From: Bythopirellula sp.
GTDB taxonomy: Bacteria; Planctomycetota; Planctomycetia; Pirellulales; Lacipirellulaceae
NCBI GenBank assembly: GCA_965216565.1
Contig: OZ244170.1
Span: 1,984,001 to 2,048,000, forward strand
DNA: 64,000 nucleotides
Direction of reading: 5' to 3'
The notes under the pieces were generated by a model. That model saw only the letters and a list, made by a program, of their open reading frames with translations. It ran no database searches and was not told the DNA's origin. Of the stretch, positions 19,146 to 64,000 are shown one piece after another (position 1 is the first letter of the stretch; each line of letters begins with the position of its first letter). The position numbers were made by a program, and so were the translations under genes.

Positions 19146-20879
19146 ATGGGCGACATGTCCATGTGGGAACTCCATTCTCAGTACCGTGTTTCTCCAGAAA
19201 TCACCAGCAACCTTCGGCATGCCGACATCGTACGCATGCTTGCCGAGCTACAGGCGGTACGCCCCGAGGCGATGCCCTTAAGCGAGCTGGGGACCTCGTA
19301 CGAAGGCCGCAGTATCTGGAAGGCGTCCCTAGGCAATGGTCCCACGAAGATATTTGCTTGGTCCCAAATGCATGGCAATGAACCAACCCACACGGCAGTG
19401 CTCTTGGATTTAATAAATTTCCTGCAGCGCTCACCGGAGGACCCTATTGCCAAAGTCATACTATCCGAGTGCACGCTACACTTGGTCCCGATGCTCAACC
19501 CCGATGGGGCGGAGCGTTACATACGACGCAATGCTCAAGCGATCGATATCAACCGTGACGCCCTCCTGCTACAGAGCCCCGAGGGACGGTTGCTGAGACA
19601 GACAGTTTTCGATTTACAACCCGATATTGCGCTAAACTTGCATAACCAAACGCCACGCACCTCGGTTGGCAGCAATCCAACTCGAGTCGCAGCCGTTTCG
19701 CTCTTGGTTCCGCCCATCGACGCAGTAGACACACAGACGGATGGGACTCGCCTTGCCAAACAACTCGCAGATAAATTCGTTGAAGCTGTCGAGCCACACT
19801 GCGCAGGCCTCATCTCTCGGTACGACGCCGACTTTATGCCGCGCTGCTTTGGCGAGTGGGTACAGCAACAAGGGGCGGCCACGCTAACGGTGGAAGCAGG
19901 CGGCTGGACAACCCCGCTGACCGAACGTAGCCCCCTGGTGCAAGTTCATTTTCTAGGAACGCTAAGCGTACTCGAGAGTATTGCCAATGAGAGTTACGAG
20001 TCGGCCGATCCGATCATCTACGATCAGCTGCCACGTTCCGGTGGCCACGACTTGTTCGATCTTGCCGTGAGAAATACGCGCATCGTGCTCAACAAGTCAG
20101 GCGAAACCGCCCGCAGCGACATCGGCATCAATTTTCATTCAACCTCGAGCGACCATCAGTTTGCCTTAACAGGGAGGATTGCCGACTTGGGCGATCTCTC
20201 CGTGACTGACGGGAAGATCGAGTTCATCGCCGACGACTGCATTTGTCTGCCAGGCAGGTTCGCCCTGCTACCTGAAATCAATCCCACCAACCTGCCCAGC
20301 CCCGATCTTGTTGCCGAGATGTTGCAATCCGGTGTCACTTCCCTGCTTGGGTCACTGGACTTATCGTCATCAGCTCAACGTGACGCACTCCTGGATCTCG
20401 GCACTCAATTGGCACTGCCTATCAACGTTGGCTTCTTGGCTGATCTCGACAGTTATCAAGGCCCAGAATCACAAGCAAACTTAATAAGAGCGCTTTCGCA
20501 GGGCGTGCTCGGAGCAATCGGCACGACCGAATCCACTGAAGCCCAGGAACTTCTAGATTGTTTTGGGATTGTTCCCATTGCGCACGGGGCACTCTCGTTT
20601 GCGTTGGGTGAGTCTTCGTCGCTGGAAGAATATTTTGGTCAGGTGCAGCAAGGTGCGCAACTTCTTAAACACTACCAGACTGGCCCAATTGCTCTGGGAT
20701 CGAGCGCAGATTTGGTCTTCCTCCAATCAGCAGATCGCCTGGCTGCCAATCAATCGGTCGACTGGAGTCTCTTGCGGCGAGTTTTAGTCAGCGGTAACGT
20801 TGTTTGGGACAAAGGCGAGCTGACCCCTAGTCCTGTGGGTCGACTACTCGTGAATGATTTTCGAGCAGCCAGGACATAA
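19146..20879 (+). CDS. M14 zinc carboxypeptidase with degenerate amidohydrolase-like C-terminal region
   Basis: QMHGNE, NPDG, DINRD, LNLH, TVEAG. C-terminal GSSADLV...VLVSG. Confidence 0.8.
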   Translation: MGDMSMWELHSQYRVSPEITSNLRHADIVRMLAELQAVRPEAMPLSELGTSYEGRSIWKASLGNGPTKIFAWSQMHGNEPTHTAVLLDLINFLQRSPEDPIAKVILSECTLHLVPMLNPDGAERYIRRNAQAIDINRDALLLQSPEGRLLRQTVFDLQPDIALNLHNQTPRTSVGSNPTRVAAVSLLVPPIDAVDTQTDGTRLAKQLADKFVEAVEPHCAGLISRYDADFMPRCFGEWVQQQGAATLTVEAGGWTTPLTERSPLVQVHFLGTLSVLESIANESYESADPIIYDQLPRSGGHDLFDLAVRNTRIVLNKSGETARSDIGINFHSTSSDHQFALTGRIADLGDLSVTDGKIEFIADDCICLPGRFALLPEINPTNLPSPDLVAEMLQSGVTSLLGSLDLSSSAQRDALLDLGTQLALPINVGFLADLDSYQGPESQANLIRALSQGVLGAIGTTESTEAQELLDCFGIVPIAHGALSFALGESSSLEEYFGQVQQGAQLLKHYQTGPIALGSSADLVFLQSADRLAANQSVDWSLLRRVLVSGNVVWDKGELTPSPVGRLLVNDFRAART

Positions 20880-20902
20880 TCGATCGTATCAAGGAATCTT
20901 AT

Positions 20903-21679
20903 ATGCTCAACAAGATTTGGTTCGGGCTGCTGCTGATCGGCGTGCTCTACGCCTTTGGCAAAGCTAGTTACAACGACTTGAGTGGCAAAACCCGATCGGT
21001 TGCGTCTGCCGAGGAAGATGTTCAGGAGCCAGATGTTCTAGTTGAAGCGACGGAGACAACAGCAGATCCGATCGACGATGTCTACGACAGACGTGGTCTC
21101 CAGGAGATGGGAAAAGATTTGAATGCAGCCGCCTTGGGAGCTGCGGAAACTTCCGTTGAAATCTGCCTCAAGCTTATCGGCATCATGGCTTTGTGGTTAG
21201 GACTGCTGAACGTCGCCAAGGATGCCGGCTTAGTCGATGCCTTCGCCAGGTTATTGCGACCACTCATGCGATGGCTATTCCCAGAAGTACCCGACGGTCA
21301 TCCCGCGCAGGGCGCGATGCTAATGAATATCTCGGCAAACATGCTAGGACTAGACAACGCGGCGACGCCGATGGGTCTGAAAGCGATGCAAGAGTTGCAA
21401 ACGCTCAACCCAGTGAAAGACACCGCGACCAATTCCATGGCCACGTTCCTGGCAATTAATACCAGCAACGTCACAATCATCCCCATCACAATTATCGCCT
21501 ATCGAGTTGCCGCCGACAGCACCGACCCGGCAGGCCCTCTGGTGCCTATCTTCCTGACGACCTCGGTCACCACAATCGTCGCGGTGCTGGCCGTCCGCAT
21601 GCTTCAGAAATCACCCGCGTATGCGATCCCTGCAGTTGCAGGAAGTTCGGAACCGATTGACGAGGAGGACGAAGTATGA
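20903..21679 (+). CDS. spmA: SpmA-like Gate-domain membrane protein
   Basis: ANMLGLDNAATPMGLKAMQELQTLNP, FLAINTS. Confidence 0.88.
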   Translation: MLNKIWFGLLLIGVLYAFGKASYNDLSGKTRSVASAEEDVQEPDVLVEATETTADPIDDVYDRRGLQEMGKDLNAAALGAAETSVEICLKLIGIMALWLGLLNVAKDAGLVDAFARLLRPLMRWLFPEVPDGHPAQGAMLMNISANMLGLDNAATPMGLKAMQELQTLNPVKDTATNSMATFLAINTSNVTIIPITIIAYRVAADSTDPAGPLVPIFLTTSVTTIVAVLAVRMLQKSPAYAIPAVAGSSEPIDEEDEV

Positions 21680-22233
21680 GCGCACTCCAAGGCATGATGG
21701 ATACCGTTAGCCAATGGACTATCCCTGGCATGATGCTGCTGATCGTTCTTTGGGCAGCCTACAACAAGGTGCCCATGTACGAGTCCTTTGTCACCGGAGC
21801 CAAAGAAGGCTTCAGCGTGGCGGTGATGATTATTCCCTATCTGGTCGCGATACTGTTTGTGATCAAGGTATTTCTCGCCAGCGGTGCGTTCGAGGACATG
21901 AAGTTGCTGTTTATTTGGGTGATGGAACAATTCGGATTGGGAGAATATACCGAAACGCTCGACCTGATGCCGCTGGCATTTACACGACCGCTCACCGGGA
22001 GTGGCGCACGCGGGGTGCTGGTGGAAATGTTCGACAGCCATGGTCCCGATAGTTTTCTAGGAAATACTGCCACGCTGATGATGGGGAGCACCGAAACTAC
22101 GTTCTACGTCATCACGGTTTACTTTGGTGCGATCCAAGTCAAAAAAATTCGTCATACCCTGCCAGCATGTTTGATCGCAGATGCAGCGGGCGTGGCCACC
22201 GCGATCTTGCTTGGCTACTGGCTCTATGCATGA
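21676..22233 (+). CDS. spmB: SpmB-like Gate-domain membrane protein
   Basis: YESFVTGAKEG, RPLTGSG, GSTETTFYVITVYFG. ATGA overlap with spmA. Confidence 0.88.
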   Translation: MSALQGMMDTVSQWTIPGMMLLIVLWAAYNKVPMYESFVTGAKEGFSVAVMIIPYLVAILFVIKVFLASGAFEDMKLLFIWVMEQFGLGEYTETLDLMPLAFTRPLTGSGARGVLVEMFDSHGPDSFLGNTATLMMGSTETTFYVITVYFGAIQVKKIRHTLPACLIADAAGVATAILLGYWLYA

Positions 22234-22240
22234 GAACCCC

Positions 22241-23209
22241 ATGAAGCCGCTTATTCCAAGAGCACTCAGAAAGGGCGACACAATCGCGCTGGTTGCTCCA
22301 GCAGGTCCCGTCGATCGCGCAAGGCTCGAGCGGGGAGTCGCTGTTTACGAGAAACAAGGTTTTCAACTCAAAACCTATCGAGATATCTACGCGACCCACG
22401 GCTACTTGGCCGGGGACGACGATGTTCGGACCAAGGAGCTGATGGAGGCGTTCGCCGATCCAGAGGTTGCTGCCATCTTCCCAGCCCGCGGAGGCACCGG
22501 TGTTACCCGACTTCTTGATCGGCTCGACTATGAATTGATTCGACAGAATCCTAAGATTCTTTGTGGCTTTAGCGATATCACCGCATTGCACTTGGCAGTG
22601 AACTCGCAGACGGGTTTGGTTACTTTTCATAGTCCTCATCCGATGGATGGCCCAGGGCATCCCGAGGGATTCACTGATCTCACCGCCCGCACCTACTGGC
22701 GTTGCTTACTGGCAGACGAATACGAGTCGTCAAACGAAGCCTCCTGGGAAATTCCTCTCACAGAAAACGAGCGACAAGGAATCGCCACGGTTCATCCCGG
22801 AACAGCAACGGGCAGGCTCATCGGCGGCAACTTGGCTCTCATCTGTTCGCTGCTAGGAACCCCTTATGAAATAGTCACCGAGCAGAACATCTTGCTAATC
22901 GAAGATATCAGCGAGCAGCCCTACCGCATTGACCGGTTTCTTTCTCAGCTTCAACTCGCCGGGAAACTGGATAAGCTGTCAGGAGTTGTCGTCGGACAAT
23001 TCACAGACTGCTTACCCGAGGAGGGCAAGGCAAGTCTCACGCTGGAGCAGATCTTCAGCAACTACCTTGGGGAATTGAAGGTTCCGATTGTTCAAAATTT
23101 CCCCACGGGCCATGCCCGCGACAATGCCACTTTGCCCCTGGGAGTCCAGGTTGAATTGAATGCAGACGCGCGAAAGCTAACCGTCTTGGAAAACCCAGTC
23201 CACTGCTGA
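22241..23209 (+). CDS. ldcA: LD-carboxypeptidase (peptidase S66)
   Basis: ARGG, GFSDIT (nucleophile Ser), GGNL, IEDISE, TGH. Confidence 0.9.
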   Translation: MKPLIPRALRKGDTIALVAPAGPVDRARLERGVAVYEKQGFQLKTYRDIYATHGYLAGDDDVRTKELMEAFADPEVAAIFPARGGTGVTRLLDRLDYELIRQNPKILCGFSDITALHLAVNSQTGLVTFHSPHPMDGPGHPEGFTDLTARTYWRCLLADEYESSNEASWEIPLTENERQGIATVHPGTATGRLIGGNLALICSLLGTPYEIVTEQNILLIEDISEQPYRIDRFLSQLQLAGKLDKLSGVVVGQFTDCLPEEGKASLTLEQIFSNYLGELKVPIVQNFPTGHARDNATLPLGVQVELNADARKLTVLENPVHC

Positions 23210-23257
23210 TTGCATCCCTTTAAGTGAGCGTTCCCATTGCACAGAGACAAAAACCGC

Positions 23258-24250
23258 ATGAAAACCCACGCCAACGAACCACCCAGAATCGAGCTCGCGC
23301 AACTTCCCTCTCCTTGTGTGGAACTTAAGAACTTAGCCAGATCGGCAGACGTGCCTAAGATATTCCTCAAGCGCGATGATCTTTCCGGCTTGGAGCTGAG
23401 CGGCAATAAGATCCGCAAACTTGAATACGTCGTGGCCGACGCCATTGCGAATGGGGCGGATACGCTAGTGACCCACGGGGGGATTCAGTCCAACCATTGC
23501 CGCGCCACGGCCGCAGTTGGCGCTCGCTTGGGAGTGCGGGTGAGAATGCTACTGCGCGGGGAAACTCCCTCTGTGCCCTACGAGGGAAATCTGGTGCTCG
23601 ACAAACTGTTCGGAGCCCACTGCAGCTACCATCCGCCTGACATCTACCGCGAGCAACTCGATCAACTCGTAAAAGATGCGATGCAAGAAGAAGTCGATCA
23701 AGGGCACAAACCTTACTTCTTCCCAGTCGGCGCCAGCGTCCCTCTCGGCAGTTGGGGCTATATCCGCTGCGTGGCGGAACTCGCCGAGACCCTGGGCCGC
23801 GATTCCGCAGTCGATCTTTATTGCGCTACCTCGTCAGGAGGCACGCAGGTGGGTTTGATTCTCGGTCGTGCCATCCTGGGTTGCGAGAACTGGCGGGTGC
23901 GGGGGGTGCCGGTTAGCGATAGCGTCGAGTATTTCCAAACACATCTCCGCGATTTGGAAAGGAAAACGACCGAGCAATTCGACTTACGACTCTCGATTGA
24001 GCAAACACCTATCGAACTCATCGACGGCTTTATTGGCGAAGGTTACGCAATTGAGTACCCCGAAGCGGTCGAAACCATTTCATTACTCGGCCAAACCGAG
24101 GCGATCGTACTCGATCCTAGTTACACGTCGAAAGCAATGACGGCGATGCTAGCCACTTTGCGTGAGGAATCGACCGACCGCATCCCCGTGTTCATCCATA
24201 CCGGCGGTGCCTTCGGACTTTACGGTCGCCGAGATCTAGTCGGTGCCTAA
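23258..24250 (+). CDS. D-cysteine desulfhydrase-family PLP enzyme
   Basis: KRDD, GNKIRK, QSNH, LDPSYT, HTGG. Confidence 0.85.
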   Translation: MKTHANEPPRIELAQLPSPCVELKNLARSADVPKIFLKRDDLSGLELSGNKIRKLEYVVADAIANGADTLVTHGGIQSNHCRATAAVGARLGVRVRMLLRGETPSVPYEGNLVLDKLFGAHCSYHPPDIYREQLDQLVKDAMQEEVDQGHKPYFFPVGASVPLGSWGYIRCVAELAETLGRDSAVDLYCATSSGGTQVGLILGRAILGCENWRVRGVPVSDSVEYFQTHLRDLERKTTEQFDLRLSIEQTPIELIDGFIGEGYAIEYPEAVETISLLGQTEAIVLDPSYTSKAMTAMLATLREESTDRIPVFIHTGGAFGLYGRRDLVGA

Positions 24251-26601
24251 CGACTGTCGCAACGCGACGGATAGATCAGGAATTTACTACGCCGCTTCAA
24301 GAATTCTTGGTGTTCTTCCCGATAGCCCTCGATGATTTCGGGCAGTGGGGTGCCGTTGGCAATGGCATCGAATACTTGCTGGTCGCAGAGCAAACGATTA
24401 AATCGTTTCATCTCCCAGTCGTCGGGATAGAGATCGCGTACCGTAGCGGCCACGGCCAGGCCGGTTTTCACCGGCAGGAAAACCGACCGGTCGACGACCG
24501 TGATGTTTACCCCCAAGCACTGCTTGTCGGCATGTTTGCTGGTATCGGGAGTAAAACGAATTGGCACGAATCGGACGCCGGGTAAGTTTTGCCCATTGAG
24601 CTCCGCCGCAAGCTGGACGCCATCGATCCAGGGGGCTCCTAGGACTTCGAACGGGGTGTCTGTGCCTCTACCGACCGAAACGTTGGTCGTTTCCATCAGT
24701 CCAATTCCCGGATATAACACAGCCTCCGCCAAACTTCGCATGTTCGGCGACGGATTCGTCCATACCAGCCCGGTGCGATCCCAGTAGTCTTCTCGCTGCC
24801 AGTTCTCAACCTTCACAATTTCCAAATCAAGATCCAGCTCGAGTTCCTCGCGAAACATCATCGCCAACTCGCCAATCGTCATTCCATGCCGCACGGCAAT
24901 CGGATGGTATCCCACAAACGATTCCAGCCCAGGATCCAAAATCGGACCCTCCACCAAGTCACCACCGATAGGATTGGGACGATCGAGCACCACGAACTTC
25001 AGGTCGTGCTCTGCGGCTGCGTGCATGGCATGCCCCATCGTGGAAATGTACGTGTAGAAACGCGCTCCAATATCTTGGATGTCGAACACCAACGTGTCGA
25101 TATCCTTCAGTTGCTCGGCTGCAGGACGCCGCGATTCTCCATACAGGCTGTACACCGGCAAATTGGTTTTTTCTTCACGGGTGTCTGTTATGTTAGGCTG
25201 ATCGAGCTTCCCTTGCAGTCCATGCTCGGGGCTGAAAAGCGAAACCAGTTCCAGGTTGTCCGCTTCGTGCAAAAGATCGAGCGTACGTCGCCCTTGGCTA
25301 TCAAGACCAGTGTGATTCGTGATCAGCCCTACTCGACGGCCCGCTAGCTGTTCGAACTTCTCTCGCACCAGAACGTCGATTCCGTGCAGCACAGGTGGCC
25401 CCGTCTCGGCAGCTATGCGATTTGTCGAGTCCTTCGCTTGCGGGTTCGGTCCAACAATGGCGCCTGCCGCCACGGTCCCGATTCGTCCAGCGAGATCGTT
25501 GACACTTCCCTTGCCATCCGGATGCAGTCGACTGGAGAGAAAGACGACGAAGAGATCCAACTCCGGATCAATCCACATGGCTGTACCAGTGAACCCGCCG
25601 TGACCAAAAGCCGAACGGCTATATAGCTCGCCGCGGTTTGATGAATACTTGCTGCGCATATCCCAGCCCAAGCCGCGTTTTTGGCCAGCGACATCGCGTG
25701 CCCGCGTCATCTCTCGAATCGAGGCGGGGTTGAGAGCGGACGTCCCCTCCGGCGATTCTCTCCGCAACATCATGTTGGCGTAGAGCGCTAGGTCGTGGGC
25801 AGTGGAAAACAATCCCGCATGGCCCGCGACTCCATTGAGCAGCGATGCACGCGGATCGTGAACCTCGCCGCGCAACCACTTGTCGTTCTGCTTTTCGGTG
25901 GGCGCAATTCGCGAACGCAGGGATGCCCTCGGCTGGTAGCCCGTATCGACCATTCCCGTAGGACGAAAGATGTTCTCAGCAGCGAACTCGGCAACCGTTT
26001 TCCCCGACACTCGATGCACAAGCTCACCCAAGACCAGAAAGCCGACGTCGGTGTAGACAAACTTTTTACCTATTCCGTGAACCGGTTTTAACGCCCAAAT
26101 GTTTAGCCAGGCTTTGTCGATCCCTTGCTGGTAATCCGCTAGTGCATTGTCGGGCACCAGCCCTCCTTGATGCGTGAGGAGTTGCTCGACGGTGATCTCC
26201 CCTTTTCCATTGGCAGCAAACTCTGGGATGTAACGTGCAACCGGATCGCGGAGCCGAACTTTGCCGCGCTGCACTAGGACCATCACGCTGGTTGCCGTTG
26301 CCACGGGCTTAGTGATCGACGCCATATCGAAGATGGTGTCGACCGTCATCGCTTCGGGGGTCGGCTCGACCTGACGGTGACCAAAAGCCTCGCAGTACGC
26401 CACCACACCTCGGCGGCCGATTAATACGACTGCACCGGGCAGATTGCCGGCTTCGATCTCTTGTTGCACCAAGTCGGGGATGACCTGAAGATGCGACCCT
26501 GCTAACCCTACCGTGTCGGGGGATGCAGTTGGCAGGTGTGCAAGACTATCGCCTACGCCCACTGTCAACAAAACTGCGCTGATTAGTAGCTGCTTCATCA
26601 T
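24247..26601 (-). CDS. Secreted fusion: beta-lactamase-family serine hydrolase (AmiE-like) + DUF1343 exo-beta-N-acetylmuramidase (NamZ)
   Basis: N-terminal MASITK, LLTH, YTD, FGHGGFTG. C-terminal GLITNHTG, FSPEHG, FDIQDIGARFYTY, LDRPNP, SPN. Start 26601 or 26607. Confidence 0.88.
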   Translation of the reverse strand: MMKQLLISAVLLTVGVGDSLAHLPTASPDTVGLAGSHLQVIPDLVQQEIEAGNLPGAVVLIGRRGVVAYCEAFGHRQVEPTPEAMTVDTIFDMASITKPVATATSVMVLVQRGKVRLRDPVARYIPEFAANGKGEITVEQLLTHQGGLVPDNALADYQQGIDKAWLNIWALKPVHGIGKKFVYTDVGFLVLGELVHRVSGKTVAEFAAENIFRPTGMVDTGYQPRASLRSRIAPTEKQNDKWLRGEVHDPRASLLNGVAGHAGLFSTAHDLALYANMMLRRESPEGTSALNPASIREMTRARDVAGQKRGLGWDMRSKYSSNRGELYSRSAFGHGGFTGTAMWIDPELDLFVVFLSSRLHPDGKGSVNDLAGRIGTVAAGAIVGPNPQAKDSTNRIAAETGPPVLHGIDVLVREKFEQLAGRRVGLITNHTGLDSQGRRTLDLLHEADNLELVSLFSPEHGLQGKLDQPNITDTREEKTNLPVYSLYGESRRPAAEQLKDIDTLVFDIQDIGARFYTYISTMGHAMHAAAEHDLKFVVLDRPNPIGGDLVEGPILDPGLESFVGYHPIAVRHGMTIGELAMMFREELELDLDLEIVKVENWQREDYWDRTGLVWTNPSPNMRSLAEAVLYPGIGLMETTNVSVGRGTDTPFEVLGAPWIDGVQLAAELNGQNLPGVRFVPIRFTPDTSKHADKQCLGVNITVVDRSVFLPVKTGLAVAATVRDLYPDDWEMKRFNRLLCDQQVFDAIANGTPLPEIIEGYREEHQEFLKRRSKFLIYPSRCDSR

Positions 26602-26637
26602 GTGCATCGTCCCCTCACTAATTTTGAAACCAACCAT

Positions 26638-28122
26638 CTACTTTGTTTTCCCATCGAGCCAATTGATTGCGAATTGAAAAACCAGACCGCACTCGATGAC
26701 GGCAATGGCCCCACACATGGCATACCAAGGCCAGTAAAGCGGAGTCAGAATGGCGATCACTGATAAAATGCCGATACCGAAGACGAATCCCAGCAGTGCC
26801 GCCATTTCGCCAAGATGCGGATAGAACACGGCCAGCAAATACATTCCCAGCACCGGCCCCAACGCAAACCCGGCAATCTTCAACACTTGCCCCACCGTGC
26901 TTTCGTCGAACCCAAAGCTCTGGCTCGCAATGGCAATGCAGATCTGAACAATCCCGAAAAACAGCGTGGCAACCCGGCTAATCCGGAGTTGTTGCTTCGA
27001 AGTCAATTCGGACTTAGTCAGCGGCAAATAGATATCGTTCACAAACGCAGTTGCCGAAGAATTCAACGAACTCGACAAGGTCGACATCGCCGCGGCAAAC
27101 ACCGCAGCGAGCGTGATGCCAACCAATCCCATGCCAAGTTCGTTCACGATAAAATGAGCAAAGATGCCATCGTTGACCACGTCTTCCGATACAGTTTGGG
27201 AGACCTGGGAATCGTAAAAACAGGACAGCGCCACACCAATGGTAAGGAACAACGCAAACTGCACGCACACGACAAAGCCACTCAGCACTAGTGCCCAACC
27301 AGCCGAGTGCTTGCTCTTAGCCGAGAGATAGCGTTGCACCATCAGTTGGTCGGTGCCGTGGGTGGCCGCGGTGAGAAAGATCCCTCCCATCAGCCCGGCC
27401 CAAAAGCTCATCGGCTTTTCCAGCCCCAGTCGAAAATCGAAGAGCTGGAATTTGCCCAACTCGTTTCCGTACTCGACAACTTGCTCGAACCCGCCGGGAA
27501 GCCTCGTCGCAATAACCACCAAGGTGGCCACGGCTCCAAGCATGTACACAGCAAACTGTAGGCAATCATTCCAAACAACGGCTTTGGCACCGCCCACGAG
27601 CGTGTAGACGATCGTAACGATTCCCAATGCGATCACGCACTGGGAGAGGGCCAACCCCGTCGCCTGTTGCAGCGCCAGTGCTGTCAGAAACAGCCGCAAC
27701 GCATCGCTCAGATTGCGAGTGACCAGGAATAACAGCGAGGCCCCGCGGCGGGTGGTTACTCCAAAGCGAGATTGAAGTACCTCATACGACGTGAACACCT
27801 GCCCTCGAAAAAATAGCGGCAACAACACAACTGCCACTAAGAGGCGTCCAGCAATATATCCGAAAGTTATCTGCAGAAAACGAAAGTCGCCGTTGAGCTT
27901 GGCGAAAGTTATCCCTGGGATACTAAGAAAAGTAACGGTACTAGTTTCCGTGGCAACAATCGAAAGCAAAATTGCCCACCACGGCAAACTTCTACCACCT
28001 AGAAAATAATCTTCCGTATTTTTTTGCGATCGCCCAAGCCACAATCCCCAGATTAGAACAATCGCGATGTAGCTAACAACGATCGCCTGATCGACCACAT
28101 GAATTGAAGAATTAATTGACAT
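26638..28122 (-). CDS. Sodium:solute symporter
   Basis: DYFLGGRSLPWW, SIVATETS, DQLMVQRYL, AAMSTLSSSLNS. Confidence 0.92.
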   Translation of the reverse strand: MSINSSIHVVDQAIVVSYIAIVLIWGLWLGRSQKNTEDYFLGGRSLPWWAILLSIVATETSTVTFLSIPGITFAKLNGDFRFLQITFGYIAGRLLVAVVLLPLFFRGQVFTSYEVLQSRFGVTTRRGASLLFLVTRNLSDALRLFLTALALQQATGLALSQCVIALGIVTIVYTLVGGAKAVVWNDCLQFAVYMLGAVATLVVIATRLPGGFEQVVEYGNELGKFQLFDFRLGLEKPMSFWAGLMGGIFLTAATHGTDQLMVQRYLSAKSKHSAGWALVLSGFVVCVQFALFLTIGVALSCFYDSQVSQTVSEDVVNDGIFAHFIVNELGMGLVGITLAAVFAAAMSTLSSSLNSSATAFVNDIYLPLTKSELTSKQQLRISRVATLFFGIVQICIAIASQSFGFDESTVGQVLKIAGFALGPVLGMYLLAVFYPHLGEMAALLGFVFGIGILSVIAILTPLYWPWYAMCGAIAVIECGLVFQFAINWLDGKTK

Positions 28123-28294
28123 GGCCCTAACTTAATCTGAAAACCTAACAGCTACAGGTACGTTCGAAGTTTTTTCAAACTAAATCATAAGGATCATGGA
28201 ACTTCTAGTGGTGGCGTAAACTCGAACACCTGGCAAAGTATTTCGTTGCTTTTAACTGGGCGAAGCGACCTAACCAAGAGTCTTCCTCCTACTC

Positions 28295-28321
28295 AGCGCA
28301 TGGAAGTCTCTTTTTCGCGCA
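28295..28321 (+). promoter_or_regulatory. Putative XylR/AraC-type operator upstream of murQ
   Basis: AGCGCA (28295) and CGCGCA (28316), 21-bp period. TAGAAT at 28352. Confidence 0.7.
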
Positions 28322-28363
28322 TCTTCGCTATGTGTTTTACGAGGTGGCTACTAGAATCGAATT

Positions 28364-31552: not shown

Positions 31553-31579
31553 TACGCAACATTCTCTCGTAAATGCGCA
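31553..31579 (+). promoter_or_regulatory. Putative operator between divergent anmK and the regulator
   Basis: TACGCA (31553) and TGCGCA (31574), 21-bp period. TATGCT at 31590. Confidence 0.7.
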
Positions 31580-31740
31580 TGTTCTTGATTATGCTAATAG
31601 GGTGCCCGACAGCACAGCGAGCCAGATTCAGACAATCCCGCCAGTCTCCCACAACTTTGGCTCTCCCACCACCGTTGTTCCTTGATCCGAGAACGGTTCG
31701 AGACATTCGACCGGTCACACCCCGTGCTATTTCGTCGACT

Positions 31741-32913: not shown

Positions 32914-32930
32914 ATGGACACCCATATAGC

Positions 32931-32957
32931 TGCGCAGAACGAAGAAAAAATTACGCA
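32931..32957 (+). promoter_or_regulatory. Putative operator upstream of PEP-CTERM gene 33132
   Basis: TGCGCA (32931) and TACGCA (32952). TAATAT at 32989. Confidence 0.7.
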
Positions 32958-48382: not shown

Positions 48383-48466
48383 GTAGGATCTTGTCGCAAC
48401 TTTCCTTCACCAATCTATCTCACATCCATTTCACACGAAAATCTGTTTCAGCAGCGCATCAACAAC

Positions 48467-49495: not shown

Positions 49496-49518
49496 TCCCA
49501 CCACTTTGCGAGAAGCAT

Positions 49519-56364: not shown

Positions 56365-56578
56365 TGCGTTTCTTGAGCCCATAGTTTGTCGGCAGAGGAA
56401 AATATAAATGTAAGGCAAATGCTAGTTTGCTTGCTAAGAATCTAGCAGAGATTCTGTCCCTGAGGGAAAGAGAACTACGGAAGGTGTATCGGTCCGCTCT
56501 CGAATGACAGCCTTGACTCCGCAAGCTTCGGAGGACATTCTGACACTCTGCAGACATAGTGGAATCTTTCCATCCATT

Positions 56579-56627
56579 TGCGCAGGATTTTCACTTAGTA
56601 TGCGCATTTCCGTGATCTTTTCTCGCA
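56579..56627 (+). promoter_or_regulatory. Putative operator (three boxes) between divergent ggt and the lipoprotein-DUF1559 genes
   Basis: TGCGCA (56579), TGCGCA (56601), CTCGCA (56622); periods of 22 and 21 bp. Confidence 0.65.
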
Positions 56628-56666
56628 TTAGTATTGCGAAATACACGCTTCTTTTTAGATTGAAAT

Positions 56667-57185
56667 ATGGAGGAGGTGGCTAACTTTACGGGGACATGTC
56701 TCTTGCAACGCGTCAGCCACAAACTAACAATTACTTATCTCAATACTTTCAAGTTCTTGGCGCTAACCTGTGCCTTGATCTGCTGCCAAATCGGTTGCAA
56801 TGCAACGCAAGAAACCTCGGGGCGGGCCGCGTCCGAAGCCCCGCTACGTTTCTTGGGACGATTATTGATTGGGTATTCGCGAGACCATCGTGGTGCGAAT
56901 CCCGGCTCGAATGACGAATTTCTGGAGTACCTCGAGGAAAACAGGTCTCAGTGGACAGACGATGCATCGGCTTCAGCCGCAGACCTATTGGTCTCGCCTT
57001 ACGATGGCAAACCGATGGTGATCGTCCCGAAAAACCAGACCGGTCCCGCGGGACCTACCGGCTACAAGATCATTGCCTTTGAAAGCGAAGGCTCTGGTAC
57101 CAAACGCTGGACCATCAACGAGCGTGGCGGCATTGTTGAGTTAGAAAACCAAGAACTGAGTCAATTATTTCCCAAACTGTTGTGA
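56667..57185 (+). CDS. Hypothetical lipoprotein preceding DUF1559
   Basis: Hydrophobic stretch and QIGC lipobox-like motif. Stop overlaps the next start. True start uncertain. Confidence 0.6.
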
Positions 57186-58315
57186 GTTACGCCATGGAAC
57201 AAGCGAAACTACAAGCCAATACACCGACGAAACGTGCGTTCACCCTCGTAGAACTTCTGGTGGTGATTGCGATTATCGGCGTCCTGGTTGCGTTGTTACT
57301 GCCTGCTGTACAAGCTGCCCGCGAAGCCGCTCGCCGGGCTCAATGCAAGAATCAACTCAAGCAAATCGGGCTCTCCTGCCAGAACTTTGTGGGCGCGAAA
57401 GAAGTATTTCCTACGGGCGGAGACGCCATATTTCCGGACATCAGTGATTATGTCGAGGGGGGAAAGCCGCTGGGCCCCGAAAAGCAGGGCCTGAGCTGGG
57501 CATACCAGATACTCCCCTACCTGGAACAAGGCCCTTTGTTCGGCATTACGACCCAGCGCGCACTCCAGGAAGTCACTGTCCCGATGTACTACTGTCCTTC
57601 ACGGCGTAGCCCGGTTGTGTCTGAGGCAATCATCCATGCCGGCCGCAGCGTTTCTCTTATGGACTACGCGGGTGCGATCCCCTGTGGGTATCCGTCCTAC
57701 GATGACTGGGTCGACGGCACGAACAGAATCTTCCCTGAAGACTCTCCGAACAGAACGCGAGGCGGCGGTACATTTCCCACGAACAGAGAACTGTTTTTCG
57801 GTGGGAATAGTGGCTCCGCGAACATCTTAGAGGTACCGAATAATGAAGTCTATCTAGGCGTGATAACACGCACGCCCTCGAAAATTGTGCCTGCAGGACG
57901 CGGCAATCCCGTACCAACCCACAGGAGGCTGGATAAAGTTACGCTTCCGGTCTCTATGGCAATGATTACTGATGGCACTAGCAATACGATGCTGGTCGCC
58001 GAGAAGTTTATCCGTCCCGACTTGTACGACGGCGGTAGCTACTCCGACGACCAAGGCTTTTCTGATGGCTGGGACCCCGACGTCATGCGGTCAACCTGTG
58101 TAAGACCGCTGCAAGATACACAGACGGGAACGCCGGACGATAAGTATGGTTTCGAAGCAGACGTGATTTACTTCGGGTCGGCCCATCCTGGAGGATTCAA
58201 CGCCGTCTTTGCCGATGGTTCCGTCCATACAATCAACTATGAAGTGAACTCAGATTTATTCGATCGCATTGGAGACCGACAAGACGGAGAATTGACAGAC
58301 TTGGGTCAGTTGTAG
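57182..58315 (+). CDS. DUF1559 prepilin-type protein
   Basis: [34 protein letters not shown]. Confidence 0.95.
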
Positions 58316-58360: not shown

Positions 58361-58387
58361 TGCGCAACGAAGTATCACAACCGCGCA
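58361..58387 (+). promoter_or_regulatory. Putative operator upstream of PEP-CTERM gene 58720
   Basis: TGCGCA (58361) and CGCGCA (58382), 21-bp period. Confidence 0.65.
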
Positions 58388-58719
58388 GCTATTATCGCTC
58401 AGAGAGGCCAGACTGTCGAACTTCAAATGGCTTTTCCGTAAATGTCATCGGAAACCGCCAAGTTACTGATAAGATTCTTGAATAGAAATCCATAAGTTAT
58501 TAGTGTAGGAGTAACTTGCTGGCGGGCGAATTAGGCACTTTTTTCACCCCAAGCACACTTTTCGTGATGCCGATTTTTCTTATCGCCGGCAACAATTGAT
58601 TAACAACTTTGACCGTAGGAGTTTCTTGCTTTATTGACTTTTGTCTTGGCAGCTAACGCATTTACTTTGCCTTGCTTGCTTTGGAATTCATTTTGTGTTT
58701 TGCAGATGGGAGTTGTCTT

Positions 58720-60354
58720 ATGTTAGACCATCGGAAGTTTTTCTTAATTGCACTAGGACTCACGCTGGCGATCGCGCCTGCAGTGACTCAAGCTCAGATC
58801 CTCTCGGACGGCGATTTCAATGCCGTCGATTACACGTCCAGTACGGCAATCAGTTCGTCCGACAGCGGATGGCCTGGGCCTCCCGCGGTCTCCGACATTC
58901 GTTACAACGTCGACTACGGTAATCTCGACATCTTTGGCGATGGTTTCATCGTCGCCAGCTTACCGGAAGCCCCCCGATCCGATCCCAACGATACAGCCAC
59001 GACGGGTCTATTCCTTTCGGCCAACAATAACTCCTTTGCCACACCAACCTGGTCGATGGCTGCGGTTACTCCTAATGGCCTTAACGTTGGTACTGGTACA
59101 GCCACGCCTAATTTTAAGATGACCGTGGATGTATTCCATAGCGCCGGCACAGGCACACTGGATCCGAATGGTGTGAACTCTGGGCGAAGTGGTACGACCA
59201 ACTACTCCCATCTAGGAATTGGGCAAGCTAACACCACGGTTCAGGTGGAAGACTTGAATGCTGATCCGAACAATGGAAATCAAGCTGGCGGGCAAGGCCT
59301 GGGCCTCCTGATCACCGCCGATGGTGGTGCTGCAGAAGATTACATGCCTGTCTACTCTGGTGCTGTTTACCGTGATCGTACCGGTGGTGCCACCTTTGGA
59401 ACTACCTACCGAGGCGTTCCAGATCCTAATGGAAACGCGATTTCCTATGGTAAATCTGGCTTGGCCAATCAAGTTCTTAATCAGTACTGGCTCGACCAAG
59501 GTCTCGGATTCGTGATCGACGATGCTGGCGACCCTAGCTTTGATCCCAACACGGGCCTGCGGCTCAACCGGTTTACTGGTAATGGAACAAGCTTTACTCC
59601 AGACCCAGCTACTGTCGGCAGCTATGATCTCGACGATCCCAATGTCGTGGTCAAACGTGTCTATGGTGATGTATTAACCGAGTTCACGGCACAACCCACG
59701 CACCTGAGTGGCGATTTTGAAACTATCAATGGACCTCTAGGTGATAACAGCATCGCCGGTGTCGGCATCCTAGGTAACACGTGGAGCACCCACGAGTTAT
59801 ATTGGATTGACGGTGTGTTCACCTATGTCATGGACGGTGCAGTCCTGCTCGAAATTGAGCCTGACTACGATCCGAATAACCTTGCCAATGGAAACGTTTA
59901 CGACGATTTCAGTGACTCGGGTTCGGTTGTCCTTGGTTTCTTCGATCGATTCAATTCGGTTGCTTTGAGCCCAGATGGTGCCAACTTTGTAATTTACGAC
60001 AACCTGACTGTAGAAGCAGCAACTTCGGGCGATGCTCCCGACCTGCTCGAATTCTACGAAAGTGAAGGCTTCCTACTTTCCAATGCCGATAACGCTGACT
60101 TCGACGGAGACGGTGTTGTCTCTGGCTTGGACTTCTTGATCTGGCAGCAGAATGTTGGTGCCACGGGTCAAACCGATAACTCCCTTGGCGATGCCAACGG
60201 AGATGGCGTAGTAGGTAGTGCCGACTTGGCCATCTACGAAGGTCAGTACGGTACGTCGCCTCTCTCGGCGAATGTAGCTGCTGTGCCCGAACCTATGTCT
60301 GTAAGCCTCATGTTGCTGGCTTGCGGTTGCATGGGCATTCGCCGACGTCGGTAG
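58720..60354 (+). CDS. PEP-CTERM surface protein of unknown function with dockerin-like repeats
   Basis: GGGAG RBS, signal peptide (TQA-Q), ADFDGDG, GDANGDG, VPEP...RRRR. Confidence 0.82.
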   Translation: MLDHRKFFLIALGLTLAIAPAVTQAQILSDGDFNAVDYTSSTAISSSDSGWPGPPAVSDIRYNVDYGNLDIFGDGFIVASLPEAPRSDPNDTATTGLFLSANNNSFATPTWSMAAVTPNGLNVGTGTATPNFKMTVDVFHSAGTGTLDPNGVNSGRSGTTNYSHLGIGQANTTVQVEDLNADPNNGNQAGGQGLGLLITADGGAAEDYMPVYSGAVYRDRTGGATFGTTYRGVPDPNGNAISYGKSGLANQVLNQYWLDQGLGFVIDDAGDPSFDPNTGLRLNRFTGNGTSFTPDPATVGSYDLDDPNVVVKRVYGDVLTEFTAQPTHLSGDFETINGPLGDNSIAGVGILGNTWSTHELYWIDGVFTYVMDGAVLLEIEPDYDPNNLANGNVYDDFSDSGSVVLGFFDRFNSVALSPDGANFVIYDNLTVEAATSGDAPDLLEFYESEGFLLSNADNADFDGDGVVSGLDFLIWQQNVGATGQTDNSLGDANGDGVVGSADLAIYEGQYGTSPLSANVAAVPEPMSVSLMLLACGCMGIRRRR

Positions 60355-60602: not shown

Positions 60603-61712
60603 ATGGAATTAGTAGCGATGTCCGTATCTCAAATCTCTCGCAAGAGAATCCACGACGCTTTCACGCTCGTAGAATTGCTGGTTGTAATCGCCATCATTGG
60701 CGTTCTGGTGGCCCTCCTGCTACCTGCCGTGCAGGCAGCACGCGAAGCGGCCCGTCGTATTCAATGCCAAAATAACGTCCGCAACTTGGCACTGGGCGTA
60801 CTCAACTATGAGAATGCCCGCGGTGTGATGCCCCCGTCGAGTCAGATGCTAGGGGCTAAGACGCGGTTACCTGGTGTAACGTCACCTCGATTGCAAATGT
60901 ACACCTCCCAAGCGCGGGAACGACTAAGTTGGATTTACCAAATCCTTCCCAATATCGAGCAGCAAGCTCTCTATGATCAGTTCGACCCCAACCTAACGGT
61001 GTTTAACCAAGACGTTAATTCGCGTCCAGAAGAAGCTCAACCTGCCGTGCTACTTTGTCCGAGCGACGATACAACCGGCACTTTCTATGAGCAAAGTAAT
61101 CGGAGACTCGCGAAAGGGAATTACGCCGCCTATGCTTCTCCAGAACACGCTACCAGCTCAACTATTTGGCCGGGCGCACTGATCCAAGAGCCTCAGCCGC
61201 TACAGCGATTTACCGACGGCACGTCCAGTACCGTGATGTTGGCTGAAGTGCTAACTCGTGAAGAACCGACAGACCAACGAGGTGCCTGGGCGGTGGCTTA
61301 CATTGGTTCTTCCATTCTCGCACTCGACCTCCATGGCCAAGGAGTGGGAACGGGCAATATTGCTGAACAGGGCCGACAAGTTCCCTACTACCCTGTTGTT
61401 TCGGGCCTCCAACTGCAAGATGCGCTCACGCCAAATCTTCAAACCGGCAGTCTCACCGCCGACGAAATTCTTCAATGCGAAAACACCGCTGATGCCGACC
61501 TGCAGCGAATGCCCTGCCGCACCCACGGTTCTACGCAAAACTACACCGCTGCCCCTCGCAGCAACCATACCGGCGGAGTCAATGCTGCCAATGTGGATGG
61601 GAGTGTTCGCTTTCTCTCCGACGACATTGAACCTCCCGTGCTAGGCGTTCTAATCCACATTAGCGATGGATTGCTTCAGGACAGCATTCCAGTCATCAGT
61701 GGCAATTTATAG
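60603..61712 (+). CDS. DUF1559 prepilin-type protein
   Basis: [34 protein letters not shown]. Confidence 0.95.
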   Translation: MELVAMSVSQISRKRIHDAFTLVELLVVIAIIGVLVALLLPAVQAAREAARRIQCQNNVRNLALGVLNYENARGVMPPSSQMLGAKTRLPGVTSPRLQMYTSQARERLSWIYQILPNIEQQALYDQFDPNLTVFNQDVNSRPEEAQPAVLLCPSDDTTGTFYEQSNRRLAKGNYAAYASPEHATSSTIWPGALIQEPQPLQRFTDGTSSTVMLAEVLTREEPTDQRGAWAVAYIGSSILALDLHGQGVGTGNIAEQGRQVPYYPVVSGLQLQDALTPNLQTGSLTADEILQCENTADADLQRMPCRTHGSTQNYTAAPRSNHTGGVNAANVDGSVRFLSDDIEPPVLGVLIHISDGLLQDSIPVISGNL

Positions 61713-62195: not shown

Positions 62196-62266
62196 TGCGC
62201 ACCCCGGCAACCTCTCCGCGCAACCGTAGGGCAATTTCTTTCCCAAAAACCTGCTCTACGTATAAT
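62196..62266 (+). promoter_or_regulatory. Putative operator and -10 element upstream of the amidase
   Basis: TGCGCA (62196) and CGCGCA (62217). Perfect TATAAT at 62261. Confidence 0.65.
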
Positions 62267-62500
62267 CGAGTGTAGAGGTAATCGAACGTAGAGGCGAACC
62301 AGATGCAGCAGCCAGTAGGCGCGATCCCAAGGAATTGCCCAAGCAGGTTGTCATCGAACTCTTACAAAGTGCAACCAAGGCTTACGTCATCCAACTTCAC
62401 CCCATGCTTGGGCTGATGCTCAAGTTCGGAATCGGCACTTTCGAACTTAGAGCGACTTAGAAGCGACAAGAATGAGAAGACACAGATGAGAAGAGGAACA

Positions 62501-64000
62501 ATGAAGAACTATCTACGCAAACTCGGTCGAAAAACACGAGCATCCCTCACGAAAGTTGGCAAACTATCTGCCGATAAGTCGCTCCGCTACGAAGTCTTAG
62601 AAACCCGCTCGATGCTCAGCGCCGCGGGAATCGTCGACTTTATCGCCCAGCCGTCAGGGGCTTTGGACGGAAAGATCGTCTTCACCTCTGCCGGTCATGG
62701 GCTCGAGTGGAACACCAACATCAACGATTTCTATCTAGGCCGAGAAGAGTTCGCCAGCACCGAGGTGAACGAAGCCCTGGGCAATCAAGATCAGCTCCAC
62801 TTCTTTGCCGAGCACCTACTCCGTGCCGGCGCTACAGTCGTACCCTTGCGACCTGTAGGCGATCAGCCCAATGAAGTGGTCCTCGATAACGACTTGGTAG
62901 AGGTGACTTACTCGGGTGCCTGGTCAAATAGCAGTGCCGCTATTCACTATGACGAAGACTATGGCGCAGTTGCCGATGGCGTCTCGTATCGATTCGCTAA
63001 TGTCTCTGCCACTGAAACAGCCACGGCAACTTACACACCTGACATTCCAGAAGAAGGTTTCTACCCGGTCTACACCTGGGTACTAGATGGTGGCAATCGA
63101 ACAGACCAGCTCTACCGCATCAACGACAGTGCCGGTGGTGTAACCGAAGTGCGTGTCGATCACCGCAAGGTTGGCAAGGGTTGGGTTTACCTGGGCACTT
63201 ATCACTTCGATGAGGGTACCAGTGGCAACGTTCAGATTAGCAATCAATCGACTGCCGGCGGATCGGTCGTCATTGCAGATGCCATCCGCTTTGGCAACGG
63301 CATGGGCGATCTTCCCGATGGCGCTGGCGGCCTGGGTACAGGAGTAATTACTGGTGCTCCTCGCGAAGACGAGGCCTCTATCTTCTGGATCTATCGGAGC
63401 GTTGGCCAGGGCGTAAGCGCCCCCTTAGTAATCGGCAGCGGCAACGTCTCTGCTCCCGAAAACATGGCCGAGCATATGAATAATAACGCCAACGCGTTTG
63501 GCGATTCGGTTTACATCGGGTTCCACTCCAACGCCGGCGGAGGCAGGGGAGCGGTTGGTCTGTTTACTAGCAGCGCCGCCCAACGGACTCCCAACCAGGA
63601 AGCTCTCGCAACCTACACGGGTCGCCAAATTAATCAAGACATGCAGGCCCTCAACGGGCAGTTCGAACACAACTGGAGCACCCGCACTACCCACACATTC
63701 AACGGCGTCAACTTTGGTGAGATCAACGCTGGCCCCGGCGCCGAAATGGACATGACCATCATCGAGGTTGCGTTTCACGACAGCAATCTTGATGCCGATC
63801 TGTTAAACGATCCCAAGGTACGCGAACAACTCGGACGTTCCACCTACGAAGCAGTCATCGAATACTTCGCCAACCACGCGGGCCTGGCCGATTCGACGAG
63901 CCAACCCTCGGCCCCAACGGAAATTTCAGCCACCACCGCGTCAAACGGAGATATCACCGTCTCTTGGGAACCCGGCCCTACCGGTGTGCAGGGTGGAACG
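62501..64000 (+). CDS. Secreted N-acetylmuramoyl-L-alanine amidase (Amidase_3) with inserted golvesin/xanthan-lyase-like beta domain and start of FN3; 3' truncated and absent from the ORF track
   Basis: Manual translation from ATG 62501 (GAGGA RBS): LRYEVLETRSMLS signal, LDGKIVFTSAGHG, VIADAIRFG, IGFHSNA, IIEVAFHD, PSAPT...ITVSW. Confidence 0.85.
   Translation, partial: MKNYLRKLGRKTRASLTKVGKLSADKSLRYEVLETRSMLSAAGIVDFIAQPSGALDGKIVFTSAGHGLEWNTNINDFYLGREEFASTEVNEALGNQDQLHFFAEHLLRAGATVVPLRPVGDQPNEVVLDNDLVEVTYSGAWSNSSAAIHYDEDYGAVADGVSYRFANVSATETATATYTPDIPEEGFYPVYTWVLDGGNRTDQLYRINDSAGGVTEVRVDHRKVGKGWVYLGTYHFDEGTSGNVQISNQSTAGGSVVIADAIRFGNGMGDLPDGAGGLGTGVITGAPREDEASIFWIYRSVGQGVSAPLVIGSGNVSAPENMAEHMNNNANAFGDSVYIGFHSNAGGGRGAVGLFTSSAAQRTPNQEALATYTGRQINQDMQALNGQFEHNWSTRTTHTFNGVNFGEINAGPGAEMDMTIIEVAFHDSNLDADLLNDPKVREQLGRSTYEAVIEYFANHAGLADSTSQPSAPTEISATTASNGDITVSWEPGPTGVQGGT

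Follow-up and report, generated by a model that had tools for sequence, protein, structure and literature searches.

We analyzed a 64,000-nucleotide stretch of the planctomycete Bythopirellula sp. (contig OZ244170.1, positions 1,984,001 to 2,048,000 of the forward strand; G000:C1:1984001-2048000), hereafter the window, which holds most of a large locus of genes predicted to degrade, import and catabolize peptidoglycan. The host genome (G000; other genomes likewise bear G numbers) is a single contig of 5.21 Mb and is 94.3% complete. Open reading frame (ORF) calls, combined with Pfam and NCBIfam scans of 43 proteins from the window and 21 from the stretch downstream, delineate about 37 genes across about 54 kb, extending about 9 kb beyond the window end (coordinates beyond 64000 continue the window numbering). 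A preliminary description of the window had put the cluster at at least 45 kb and about 30 genes; the cluster is real and proved larger, running on to genes for NagB and an Amidase_2 protein with a VPEP tail. All the gene families named in that description were recovered at the claimed places, with some corrections: the AmiE-like and NamZ domains, listed as separate genes, are fused in one gene (24247-26637); the S11 peptidase is present as part of a three-domain protein, along with class-A beta-lactamase-like and PG_binding_1 domains; and a tandem GNAT gene (44529-45437) had been missed. The genes for catabolism and transport are the following:

19146..20879, plus strand: M14 zinc carboxypeptidase, probable gamma-D-Glu-mDAP peptidase (MpaA-like by predicted specificity; PF00246 E 2e-17; HGNE motif)
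20903..22233, plus strand: Gate-domain membrane pair, candidate transporter, which we take to be of the SpmA/SpmB type (PF07670 in both)
22181..23209, plus strand: S66 L,D-carboxypeptidase, LdcA-like (PF02016 and PF17676; NF008424 195 bits, under the cut-off of 378)
23237..24250, plus strand: pyridoxal phosphate enzyme of the D-cysteine desulfhydrase family, PALP/DcyD-like (PF00291; TIGR01275 251 bits, cut-off 289)
26638..28122, minus strand: sodium:solute symporter (SSS), candidate importer of N-acetylmuramic acid (MurNAc) and N-acetylglucosamine (GlcNAc) (TIGR00813 above cut-off)
28364..29263, plus strand: MurQ, MurNAc-6-phosphate etherase (TIGR00274 398 bits, cut-off 302)
29384..30316, plus strand: BadF-family amino-sugar kinase, MurK-like (top PDB match a MurNAc/GlcNAc kinase)
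30338..31414, minus strand: AnmK, anhydro-MurNAc kinase (NF007141 402 bits, cut-off 352)
42601..44532, plus strand: AmpG-like permease of the major facilitator superfamily (TIGR00901 179 bits, cut-off 350)
44529..45437, plus strand: tandem GNAT, candidate glucosaminide re-N-acetyltransferase, between ampG and nagZ (PF00583 twice)
45467..47023, plus strand: GH3 beta-N-acetylglucosaminidase, NagZ-like, no leader seen (PF00933; KHFPGHG and DSH motifs; NF003740 176 bits, cut-off 207)
47303..49495, plus strand: DUF1611 (DgcN-like) protein and enolase-family epimerase (DgcA or L-Ala-D/L-Glu epimerase-like) (NF041892 283 against 480 bits, NF042940 237 against 400 bits)
51562..53262, plus strand: NhaC-family transporter, candidate amino-acid or peptide importer (PF03553)
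54592..56418, minus strand: gamma-glutamyltransferase (GGT) (TIGR00066 above cut-off)
68300 (L001:8300-8998), minus strand: EF-hand lipoprotein
68995-70959 (L001:8995-10959), minus strand: NagB-PIG-L (NagB above the TIGR00502 and NF002557 cut-offs)
71128 (L001:11128-12180): AP_endonuc_2 TIM barrel

G000 has one copy each of MurQ, BadF, AmpG, DgcN, M19, SpmA/B, DcyD, GNAT and the Bla-PGBD-S11 gene, and all lie inside the locus; since, moreover, the gene order is kept in relatives, the clustering is not by chance. The GC content is uniform along the locus, at 53-55%, and hence gives no sign of a recent island. The SSS gene adjoins murQ in most of the relatives inspected, and the genes for the DgcN-like protein and the epimerase are adjacent; the DcyD-like enzyme would act in D-amino-acid catabolism. 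An identification of the M14 enzyme as MpaA by PDB search was rejected, the matches being generic M14 enzymes only. The PDB matches of the tandem GNAT are weak, namely 5kf1 (E 9e-6), presumably the GlmA of Clostridium acetobutylicum, and 4zm6, an N-acetyl-beta-D-glucosaminidase chain (E 4e-5). A gene of the HGSNAT/DUF5009 type stands at the locus edge in G018, G016 and G009, all of them without the GNAT, and because G000 itself has two unlinked HGSNAT homologs, a replacement of the one by the other is only suggestive. A second Amidase_2 family also occurs at the locus edge in G018 (L008:7845-10199), G009, G016 and G034, beside the HGSNAT/DUF5009 gene in three of them; its G000 homolog is unlinked (C1:2507714-2508787).

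Interspersed with these are genes for exported hydrolases and their non-catalytic companions:

24247..26637, minus strand: exported fusion of a beta-lactamase-fold hydrolase and a NamZ exo-muramidase (PF00144, PF07075 E 8e-86, PF20732)
33048..34259, plus strand: non-catalytic exported protein with dockerin-like repeat and VPEP tail, candidate binding protein
34365..35963, plus strand: exported protein with SpoIID/SleC-fold lytic-transglycosylase-like domain, carbohydrate-binding-module (CBM)-like module, dockerin-like repeat and VPEP tail
35091..35684, plus strand: within the foregoing, shared beta-sandwich module of about 195 residues, candidate peptidoglycan-binding
36233..36985, plus strand: non-catalytic PEP-CTERM protein (PF07589)
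37628..39775, minus strand: exported GHL10 glycoside hydrolase with the shared module and VPEP tail (PF02638; Cwp19 5oq2 E 1e-15; probable start near 39640)
39992..41014, plus strand: DUF1559 prepilin-like protein (PF07596 and PF07963)
41058..42587, plus strand: exported GHL10 close to Clostridioides difficile Cwp19 (5oq2 E 9e-77 over 362 residues)
49231..51546, plus strand: exported class-A-beta-lactamase-like, PG_binding_1 and S11 D,D-peptidase protein (two SxxK/SxN/KTG sets; probable start near 49522)
53361..54608, plus strand: exported M19 dipeptidase (PF01244 E 3e-118; leader)
56667..58315, plus strand: small lipoprotein-like protein and DUF1559 prepilin-like protein
58672..60354, plus strand: non-catalytic exported VPEP protein
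60603..61712, plus strand: DUF1559 prepilin-like protein
62486..65506, plus strand: large exported Amidase_3/Golvesin-C/fn3 protein of 1006 residues (PF01520 25.8 bits, under the cut-off of 27)
65843 (L001:5843-6790), downstream of the window: PEP-CTERM gene
67006 (L001:7006-8211), downstream of the window: fourth DUF1559 gene
72204-73067 (L001:12204-13067), minus strand: exported Amidase_2-VPEP protein, an AmpD-fold amidase (PF01510 E 2e-26)

In the fusion protein, which has a hydrophobic leader and an SxxK motif, both NamZ models (PF07075 and PF20732) score above cut-off; the beta-lactamase-fold part matches its fold family and no specific AmiE model, and we infer that it is an AmiE-like amidase. 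The AF2 model of the protein encoded at 34365 (pLDDT 90.9) superposes in its N-terminal domain on SleC (9h68; Z 16.0, rmsd 2.0, 152 aligned residues) and SpoIID (5i1t; Z 15.9, rmsd 2.9, 157 aligned residues), and its Glu53, which we take to be catalytic, is invariant in 101 aligned sequences and aligned with 4rwr. Zinc-amidase motifs are present in both locus amidases (Amidase_3 and Amidase_2), including the large one, for which a PDB sequence search matched the Golvesin-like and fn3 parts and not the amidase domain; its leader is of the planctomycete extracellular type (LxxExLExRxLL), a motif common to 16 mostly large G000 proteins. Between the third DUF1559 gene and this amidase there is a small ORF, about 120 codons long, for a membrane protein (about 61789-62163), and in G009 an ORF of similar size follows the DUF1559 gene.

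The features of PEP-CTERM sorting, namely the PEP motif, membrane helix, basic tail and leader, were found on locus proteins, of whose tails PF07589 matched only a part, and the genome encodes an exosortase above the TIGR02602 cut-off; by analogy with such systems, the VPEP-tailed enzymes would be placed at or beyond the outer membrane. By motif counts, G000 has about 238 VPEP-tailed and 54 DUF1559 genes as against a single exosortase match. The preliminary description had read the accessory architecture, shared with a neighboring starch locus, as evidence of feeding; this carries little weight, and we rejected the combination of DUF1559 and PEP-CTERM genes as specific evidence, the pairing being generic in G000, where a PEP-CTERM gene lies within 3.5 kb of 38 of the 54 DUF1559 genes.

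The shared module is found in three G000 proteins: the SpoIID-fold protein (34365), the GHL10 (37628) and an unlinked GH25 lysozyme (L041, G000:C1:3412300-3413967), which also has a VPEP tail; no TGCGCA (see below) was found in the approximately 400 bases upstream of the lysozyme gene. The module has no Pfam match, with Atlas leads at 0.89-0.90, and its fold resembles those of CBM11, CBM27, CBM30 and related CBMs (Z up to 13.4, identity at most 17%), the top Z being shared with a flagellar sheath protein that has this fold as well. A database search that started from the SpoIID protein and had a length limit gave 126 matches, and among the 120 listed the partner is SpoIID in 108, GH25 in 6, GHL10 in 2 and none of these in 4. 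Given that starting point, the real signal is that the module is joined to three kinds of catalytic domain, each belonging to a family that includes wall-cleaving members. The module probably holds exported enzymes on peptidoglycan. Homologs of the SpoIID-module protein occur in Adhaeretor mobilis, Botrimarina mediterranea, Posidoniimonas polymericola and Pseudobythopirellula maris, and also in Aeoliella, a range that marks the host as a planctomycete and most likely one of the Lacipirellulaceae.

A further element ties the genes together, namely a tandem operator of the form TGCGCA-N15-TGCGC with a 21-bp period, which precedes the majority of the transcription units and is found again in the orthologous loci. 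Scores given with the sites, to which no strand is assigned, are those of a position weight matrix (PWM) built from 27 sites of relatives:

31573..32913, plus strand: XylR-type regulator with LacI-like sensor and AraC helix-turn-helix (Escherichia coli XylR 4fe4 E 9e-51; homology from near 31745)
28292..28324: operator-like tandem site in the divergent SSS-murQ intergenic region (PWM 18.6)
31553..31579: tandem operator between anmK and the regulator (PWM 22.6)
32928..32960: tandem operator upstream of 33048 (PWM 20.2)
36070..36096: perfect tandem operator, TGCGCA-N15-TGCGCA (PWM 23.7)
39844..39870: tandem operator in the intergenic region of the divergent genes 37628 and 39992 (PWM 20.5)
47036: weak operator site before the 47303 gene (PWM 15.7)
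56579..56630: operator array with three half-sites
58361..58387: tandem operator upstream of 58672 (PWM 21.1)
62196..62222: tandem operator-like site upstream of the amidase
L001:6971, past the window: operator with the highest score (PWM 23.8)
L001:11166, past the window: operator-like site

TGCGCA is the top-enriched hexamer in the intergenic DNA of the locus (9 observed, 0.95 expected; P 7.5e-7, uncorrected for about 2000 words), and the 50-kb bin covering most of the locus is the genome's richest in TGCGCA sites. In six fetched regions of relatives with 59 intergenic sites, partner half-sites lie at 21 bp 35 times and at any other distance at most 5 times. A PWM scan of G000 places six of the top eight distinct sites in the locus, with one more preceding the second GH25 gene and the last looking unrelated, in a test that is partly circular, the training sites having been chosen by the same hexamer. 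Weaker sites stand before murQ/SSS, nagB, dgcN and the 56667 unit. The tandem site at the murQ start is present also in G103, G173, G134, G130 and G042, and TGCGCA at the anmK-regulator position in G018, G009, G016, G014 and G013. AraC/XylR proteins bind 21-bp direct repeats, and the XylR-type activator encoded in the locus is the probable reader of the tandem operator; a 56% identical paralog at a second G000 locus could read the same sites. No operator sites were found in the adjoining starch locus, and in G034 neither a XylR gene in the 60 kb fetched around its locus nor intergenic TGCGCA. A PWM match at C1:1381956, among metal-efflux-like genes, was taken by eye as unrelated.

The same sequence motif appears at other places in the genome. 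A perfect tandem site precedes a second S66 peptidase gene and a Gfo/Idh/MocA-like gene (G000:C1:4926452-4929215, L044), which is possibly a further member of the regulon; a gene resembling one of this unit lies at the locus edge in G018. The second XylR gene belongs to a sister locus (G000:C1:3139451-3165760; L042, L043) that also has operator-like sites and codes for a second AnmK-like kinase (51% identical; 56% for the XylR), two GHL10 proteins, a GH25-PEP lysozyme, an SSS transporter, a sugar porter, a ROK kinase, two Gfo/Idh/MocA oxidoreductases, an FAD oxidoreductase, and PEP-CTERM and DUF1559 proteins. In G005, G007, G008 and G012 the second AnmK/XylR pair adjoins the MurQ core. The substrate of the sister locus is perhaps another wall sugar or anhydro sugar.

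For synteny, the survey of which had been proposed in the preliminary description, we inspected the murQ regions of 27 genomes: 11 congeners, 4 family members of three other genera and 12 genomes of other families. In 9 of the 15 family members the locus has a large version that comprises a sugar, a peptide and an exported arm and keeps the gene order, namely in the congeners G009, G010, G016, G018 and G020 (5/11) and the members of other genera G103, G134, G173 and G185 (4/4). Partial versions occur in G013 and G014, and a core of AmiE-NamZ, SSS, MurQ, BadF and AnmK in G005, G007, G008 and G012. Beyond the family, a large, rearranged version is present in G034 and the core plus XylR in G042 and G130; the remaining nine genomes have two to five of these genes close to murQ. 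GH25-PEP lysozymes are encoded inside the locus in G010, G020 and G134. Across 24 congeners, MurQ scores above cut-off in 14, is split in 2 and is cut by a contig end in 1; NamZ, searched in 40 genomes overall, is found in 15 of the congeners and GH25 in 12, all among the MurQ carriers. The three markers are jointly missing in 7 of the 24, four of which are 92-93% complete. A GH25 match in G005 (G005:C1:1139410-1140039) has one internal TAG stop, which may reflect a broken gene or an error in sequencing. The locus is real and conserved, and is probably co-regulated.

We then consider the host's own wall-building genes, for which the searches were positive in walled control genomes. In G000, they returned no transpeptidase, SEDS, transglycosylase, YkuD (L,D-transpeptidase) or SLT match. 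MurA was not found, the sole MurA-type match being AroA; nor were MurC, MurD, MurF or Mpl, the two Mur-ligase matches being FolC and a sub-cut-off MurE-like protein. MraY (57 against a cut-off of 192 bits) and Ddl are both far below cut-off. This is not a gap of one assembly, since SEDS was likewise found in 0/24 congeners and in 0/4 family members of three other genera, and no transpeptidase at the level of penicillin-binding proteins (PBPs) was found in the 24 congeners, three genomes having weak matches (best 1.8e-8); in G016 and G018 one such match falls in the locus's own beta-lactamase-like gene. Planctomycete PBPs are detectable by these searches: of 16 genomes from the order's other families, seven have PBPs, with matches at 3e-37 or better, and seven have SEDS, and MurQ is present in none of those carrying them. 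Hence, the host seems unable to build a canonical wall. The MurE-like gene lies beside a MurG-like gene (L045:5626-9106), with MurB apart (G000:C1:1011478-1012356).

Based on the observed gene families, fold, motif enrichment, synteny and negative searches, we consider it likely that the locus is an inducible catabolic system for the peptidoglycan of other bacteria, in a host apparently unable to build a canonical wall; its substrates, protein localization, operator-regulator link, induction and support of growth are predictions from sequence. First, outside the inner membrane, the SpoIID-fold enzyme, the two GHL10 proteins, the unlinked GH25 lysozymes, the two amidases and the D,D-peptidase would fragment sacculi, with the shared CBM-like module keeping the endo-enzymes on their substrate. 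Second, the AmiE-NamZ fusion, M19 and GGT would trim the fragments to MurNAc, GlcNAc, disaccharides and short peptides, which, third, would be imported by SSS, the AmpG-like permease, NhaC and perhaps SpmAB. Fourth, in the cytoplasm, NagZ would cleave disaccharides and, more speculatively, the GNAT may re-acetylate glucosamine ends from de-N-acetylated walls; AnmK would take anhydro-MurNAc and the BadF kinase MurNAc and GlcNAc, so covering both types of MurNAc end; MurQ would yield GlcNAc-6-phosphate, which deacetylation and NagB would pass to glycolysis; and the stem peptide would be degraded by the S66 and M14 peptidases, the epimerase/DgcN pair and the DcyD-like enzyme. Fifth, the XylR-type activator would sense a breakdown product and turn on the units via the 21-bp tandem operator. 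The earlier suggestion of feeding on foreign walls, rather than only self-recycling, gains backing from the wall-gene negatives, the conserved operator and the joint absence of markers in congeners.

Several points weigh against this proposal, beyond the partial circularity of the PWM scan. The scores of AmpG, NagZ, LdcA, DgcN and DgcA all fall under the curated NCBIfam cut-offs, and the congeners without the locus markers also have small genomes (2.6-4.6 Mb), some of them incomplete. GHL10 is not wall-specific, DogH being given as starch-active, and export of PEP-CTERM proteins through the outer membrane is itself a proposal (PMC1569441). Moreover, MurB, MurE-like and MurG-like genes are kept in G000, and a second Mur-ligase besides FolC persists in 24/24 congeners (two matches in 23 and three in 1), which implies some function. 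Finally, a member of the same order, Rhodopirellula baltica, was reported to contain MurNAc and diaminopimelic acid (PMC4432640), so that a non-canonical wall in the host is conceivable.

These last observations would also fit a locus that recycles the host's own thin, non-canonical wall, made by as yet undiscovered enzymes, with the exported hydrolases remodeling it in the periplasm. AmpG, AnmK and LdcA are, after all, recycling genes in E. coli. So are NagZ, AmiE, NamZ and MurQ in Bacillus subtilis (PMC8054146), and the wall components of R. baltica and the kept MurB, MurE-like and MurG-like genes speak for it too. We nevertheless hold it to be unlikely: neither a polymerase nor a cross-linker was found in the searches of G000, nor was Mpl; congeners with the same two Mur-ligase matches lack the locus markers, including G001 and G011 (92% complete); a sugar-type activator with a locus-wide operator suits a nutrient response; and about 15 hydrolase domains are a large set for a wall that was not found in the genome. 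Another view is that the main use of the locus is attack on living bacteria, with surface lysozymes and amidases lysing neighbors, mainly Gram-positives, and the catabolic arm harvesting the products. It draws on the sorting tails of two exported GH25 lysozymes and of endo-acting enzymes, on the top operator site before one GH25 gene, and on the extracellular M23 peptidases of marine bacteria that are cited as degrading the walls of other cells for food (PMC11044484); however, no M23 or cross-bridge peptidase and no delivery apparatus are among the Pfam matches of the locus, and the inducible sugar-locus design suits particles and debris equally, which makes such predation improbable as the main use and, in any case, a sub-case of feeding rather than an alternative. 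The idea that the host, lacking MurA like Tannerella forsythia, whose ampG-murTKQ cluster scavenges environmental fragments (PMC5388701), imports MurNAc or muropeptides for its own wall is very improbable, as the downstream assembly genes were not found in G000, the three best of 8 APH-family matches scanned include none named AmgK, the locus ends in the MurNAc-destroying MurQ and NagB, and seven congeners lack the locus markers.

The proposed feeding system can be set against several known ones. The recycling set of E. coli comprises AmpG-NagZ-AmpD-LdcA-Mpl-AnmK-MurQ, and the locus has in common with E. coli recycling AmpG-like, NagZ-like, S66, AnmK, MurQ, M14 and epimerase genes; unlike it, the locus has no Mpl or Slt, its AmpD-fold amidase is exported with a VPEP tail, and its genes are clustered under one operator. 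The murQ-murR-murP-amiE-nagZ-namZ operon of B. subtilis, in which NagZ, AmiE and NamZ jointly digest peptidoglycan to sugars and peptides (PMC8054146), shares MurQ, NamZ and NagZ-like and AmiE-like hydrolases; it has six genes as against about 37 and belongs to an organism that builds a wall. In contrast to that operon, no phosphotransferase-system MurP or MurR/RpiR-type regulator is among the scanned locus proteins, their places being taken by SSS, the BadF kinase, AnmK and the XylR-type activator; here, AmiE and NamZ are fused, and a full peptide arm and exported endo-enzymes are present. T. forsythia, with ampG-murT-murK-murQ, is likewise a diderm without MurA that handles foreign fragments via AmpG, a kinase and MurQ, and depends on MurNAc as a growth factor to make its own wall (PMC5388701, PMC10465942), whereas in our case the searches turned up no assembly genes, the pathway seems to serve catabolism alone and exported depolymerases are added. 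In its layout, the locus parallels the polysaccharide utilization loci of Bacteroidota and the planctomycete CAZyme gene clusters in co-locating depolymerases, binding proteins, transporters and a sugar-sensing regulator; the clusters of Planctomycetota are, according to that source, not functionally characterized (PMC11131199). Unlike the Bacteroidota loci, it has no match to a TonB-dependent receptor/SusC or to SusD among the 43 + 21 proteins, with DUF1559 and PEP-CTERM proteins instead, and its predicted substrate is a glycopeptide. Cwp19 (GHL10), SpoIID (5i1t) and SleC (9h68), with which the locus enzymes share catalytic-domain homology or fold, act on the producer's wall or spore cortex, Cwp19 of C. 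difficile being described as a lytic transglycosylase (PMC6016235); the locus enzymes carry a different binding module and a sorting tail. The earlier remark that no described locus of this form was known agrees with a literature search, most subscription journals lying outside its scope, which found no such planctomycete locus. The component parts are already known; the new elements are the host without detected canonical wall synthesis, the candidate binding module and the candidate operator.

In sediments and deep water, peptidoglycan makes up a major share of the organic carbon and nitrogen pool, and metagenomics hardly separates wall-eating from wall-remodeling enzymes (PMC11044484, PMC10322874). 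A host without detected wall synthesis removes much of that ambiguity and offers a clean model. The finding yields candidates for a binding module, an operator and a regulator, and the signature SpoIID-module protein is carried by named cultured relatives. It is also relevant to the debate over the presence of peptidoglycan in these planctomycetes, on which a 2025 review notes an eroded dcw cluster, wall genes that are non-essential in Planctopirus limnophila and renewed doubt over the wall (PMC12673574). In a class sample of 151 genomes at least 92% complete, MurQ is present in 86, SEDS in 47 and both in 16, that is, MurQ in 70 of the 104 without SEDS and 16 of the 47 with it. These counts speak for our proposal, with the caveat that they are not independent, since a few families dominate. 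For the same non-independence of kin, we do not rely on a Fisher test on them (p 1.8e-4). By family, SEDS is found in 0/36, 0/31 and 0/19 in some and in 36/36 in another, and in one SEDS-less family MurQ is fused to the BadF kinase (G066, G098). A broader scenario, which we offer tentatively and would not ourselves bet on, is that much of the class Planctomycetia lost canonical wall synthesis and kept or gained MurNAc catabolism, and that this family made of it a dedicated, inducible surface machine for binding and dissolving the walls of other bacteria, with a new peptidoglycan-binding module and DUF1559 fibers, possibly used on live prey. If true, planctomycetes would specialize in recycling bacterial necromass, and the wall enzymes that their genomes encode would point to what they eat and not to a hidden wall.

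Another part of the window (855-17561) is occupied by a starch/maltodextrin locus. It codes for an extracytoplasmic function sigma factor with its FecR anti-sigma factor, PEP-CTERM and DUF1559 proteins, two small proteins, two GH13 proteins, the first of which bears a PEP-like tail, and an ABC system featuring a fusion of solute-binding domain and permease (14369-16672); a sulfatase gene follows at 17348.

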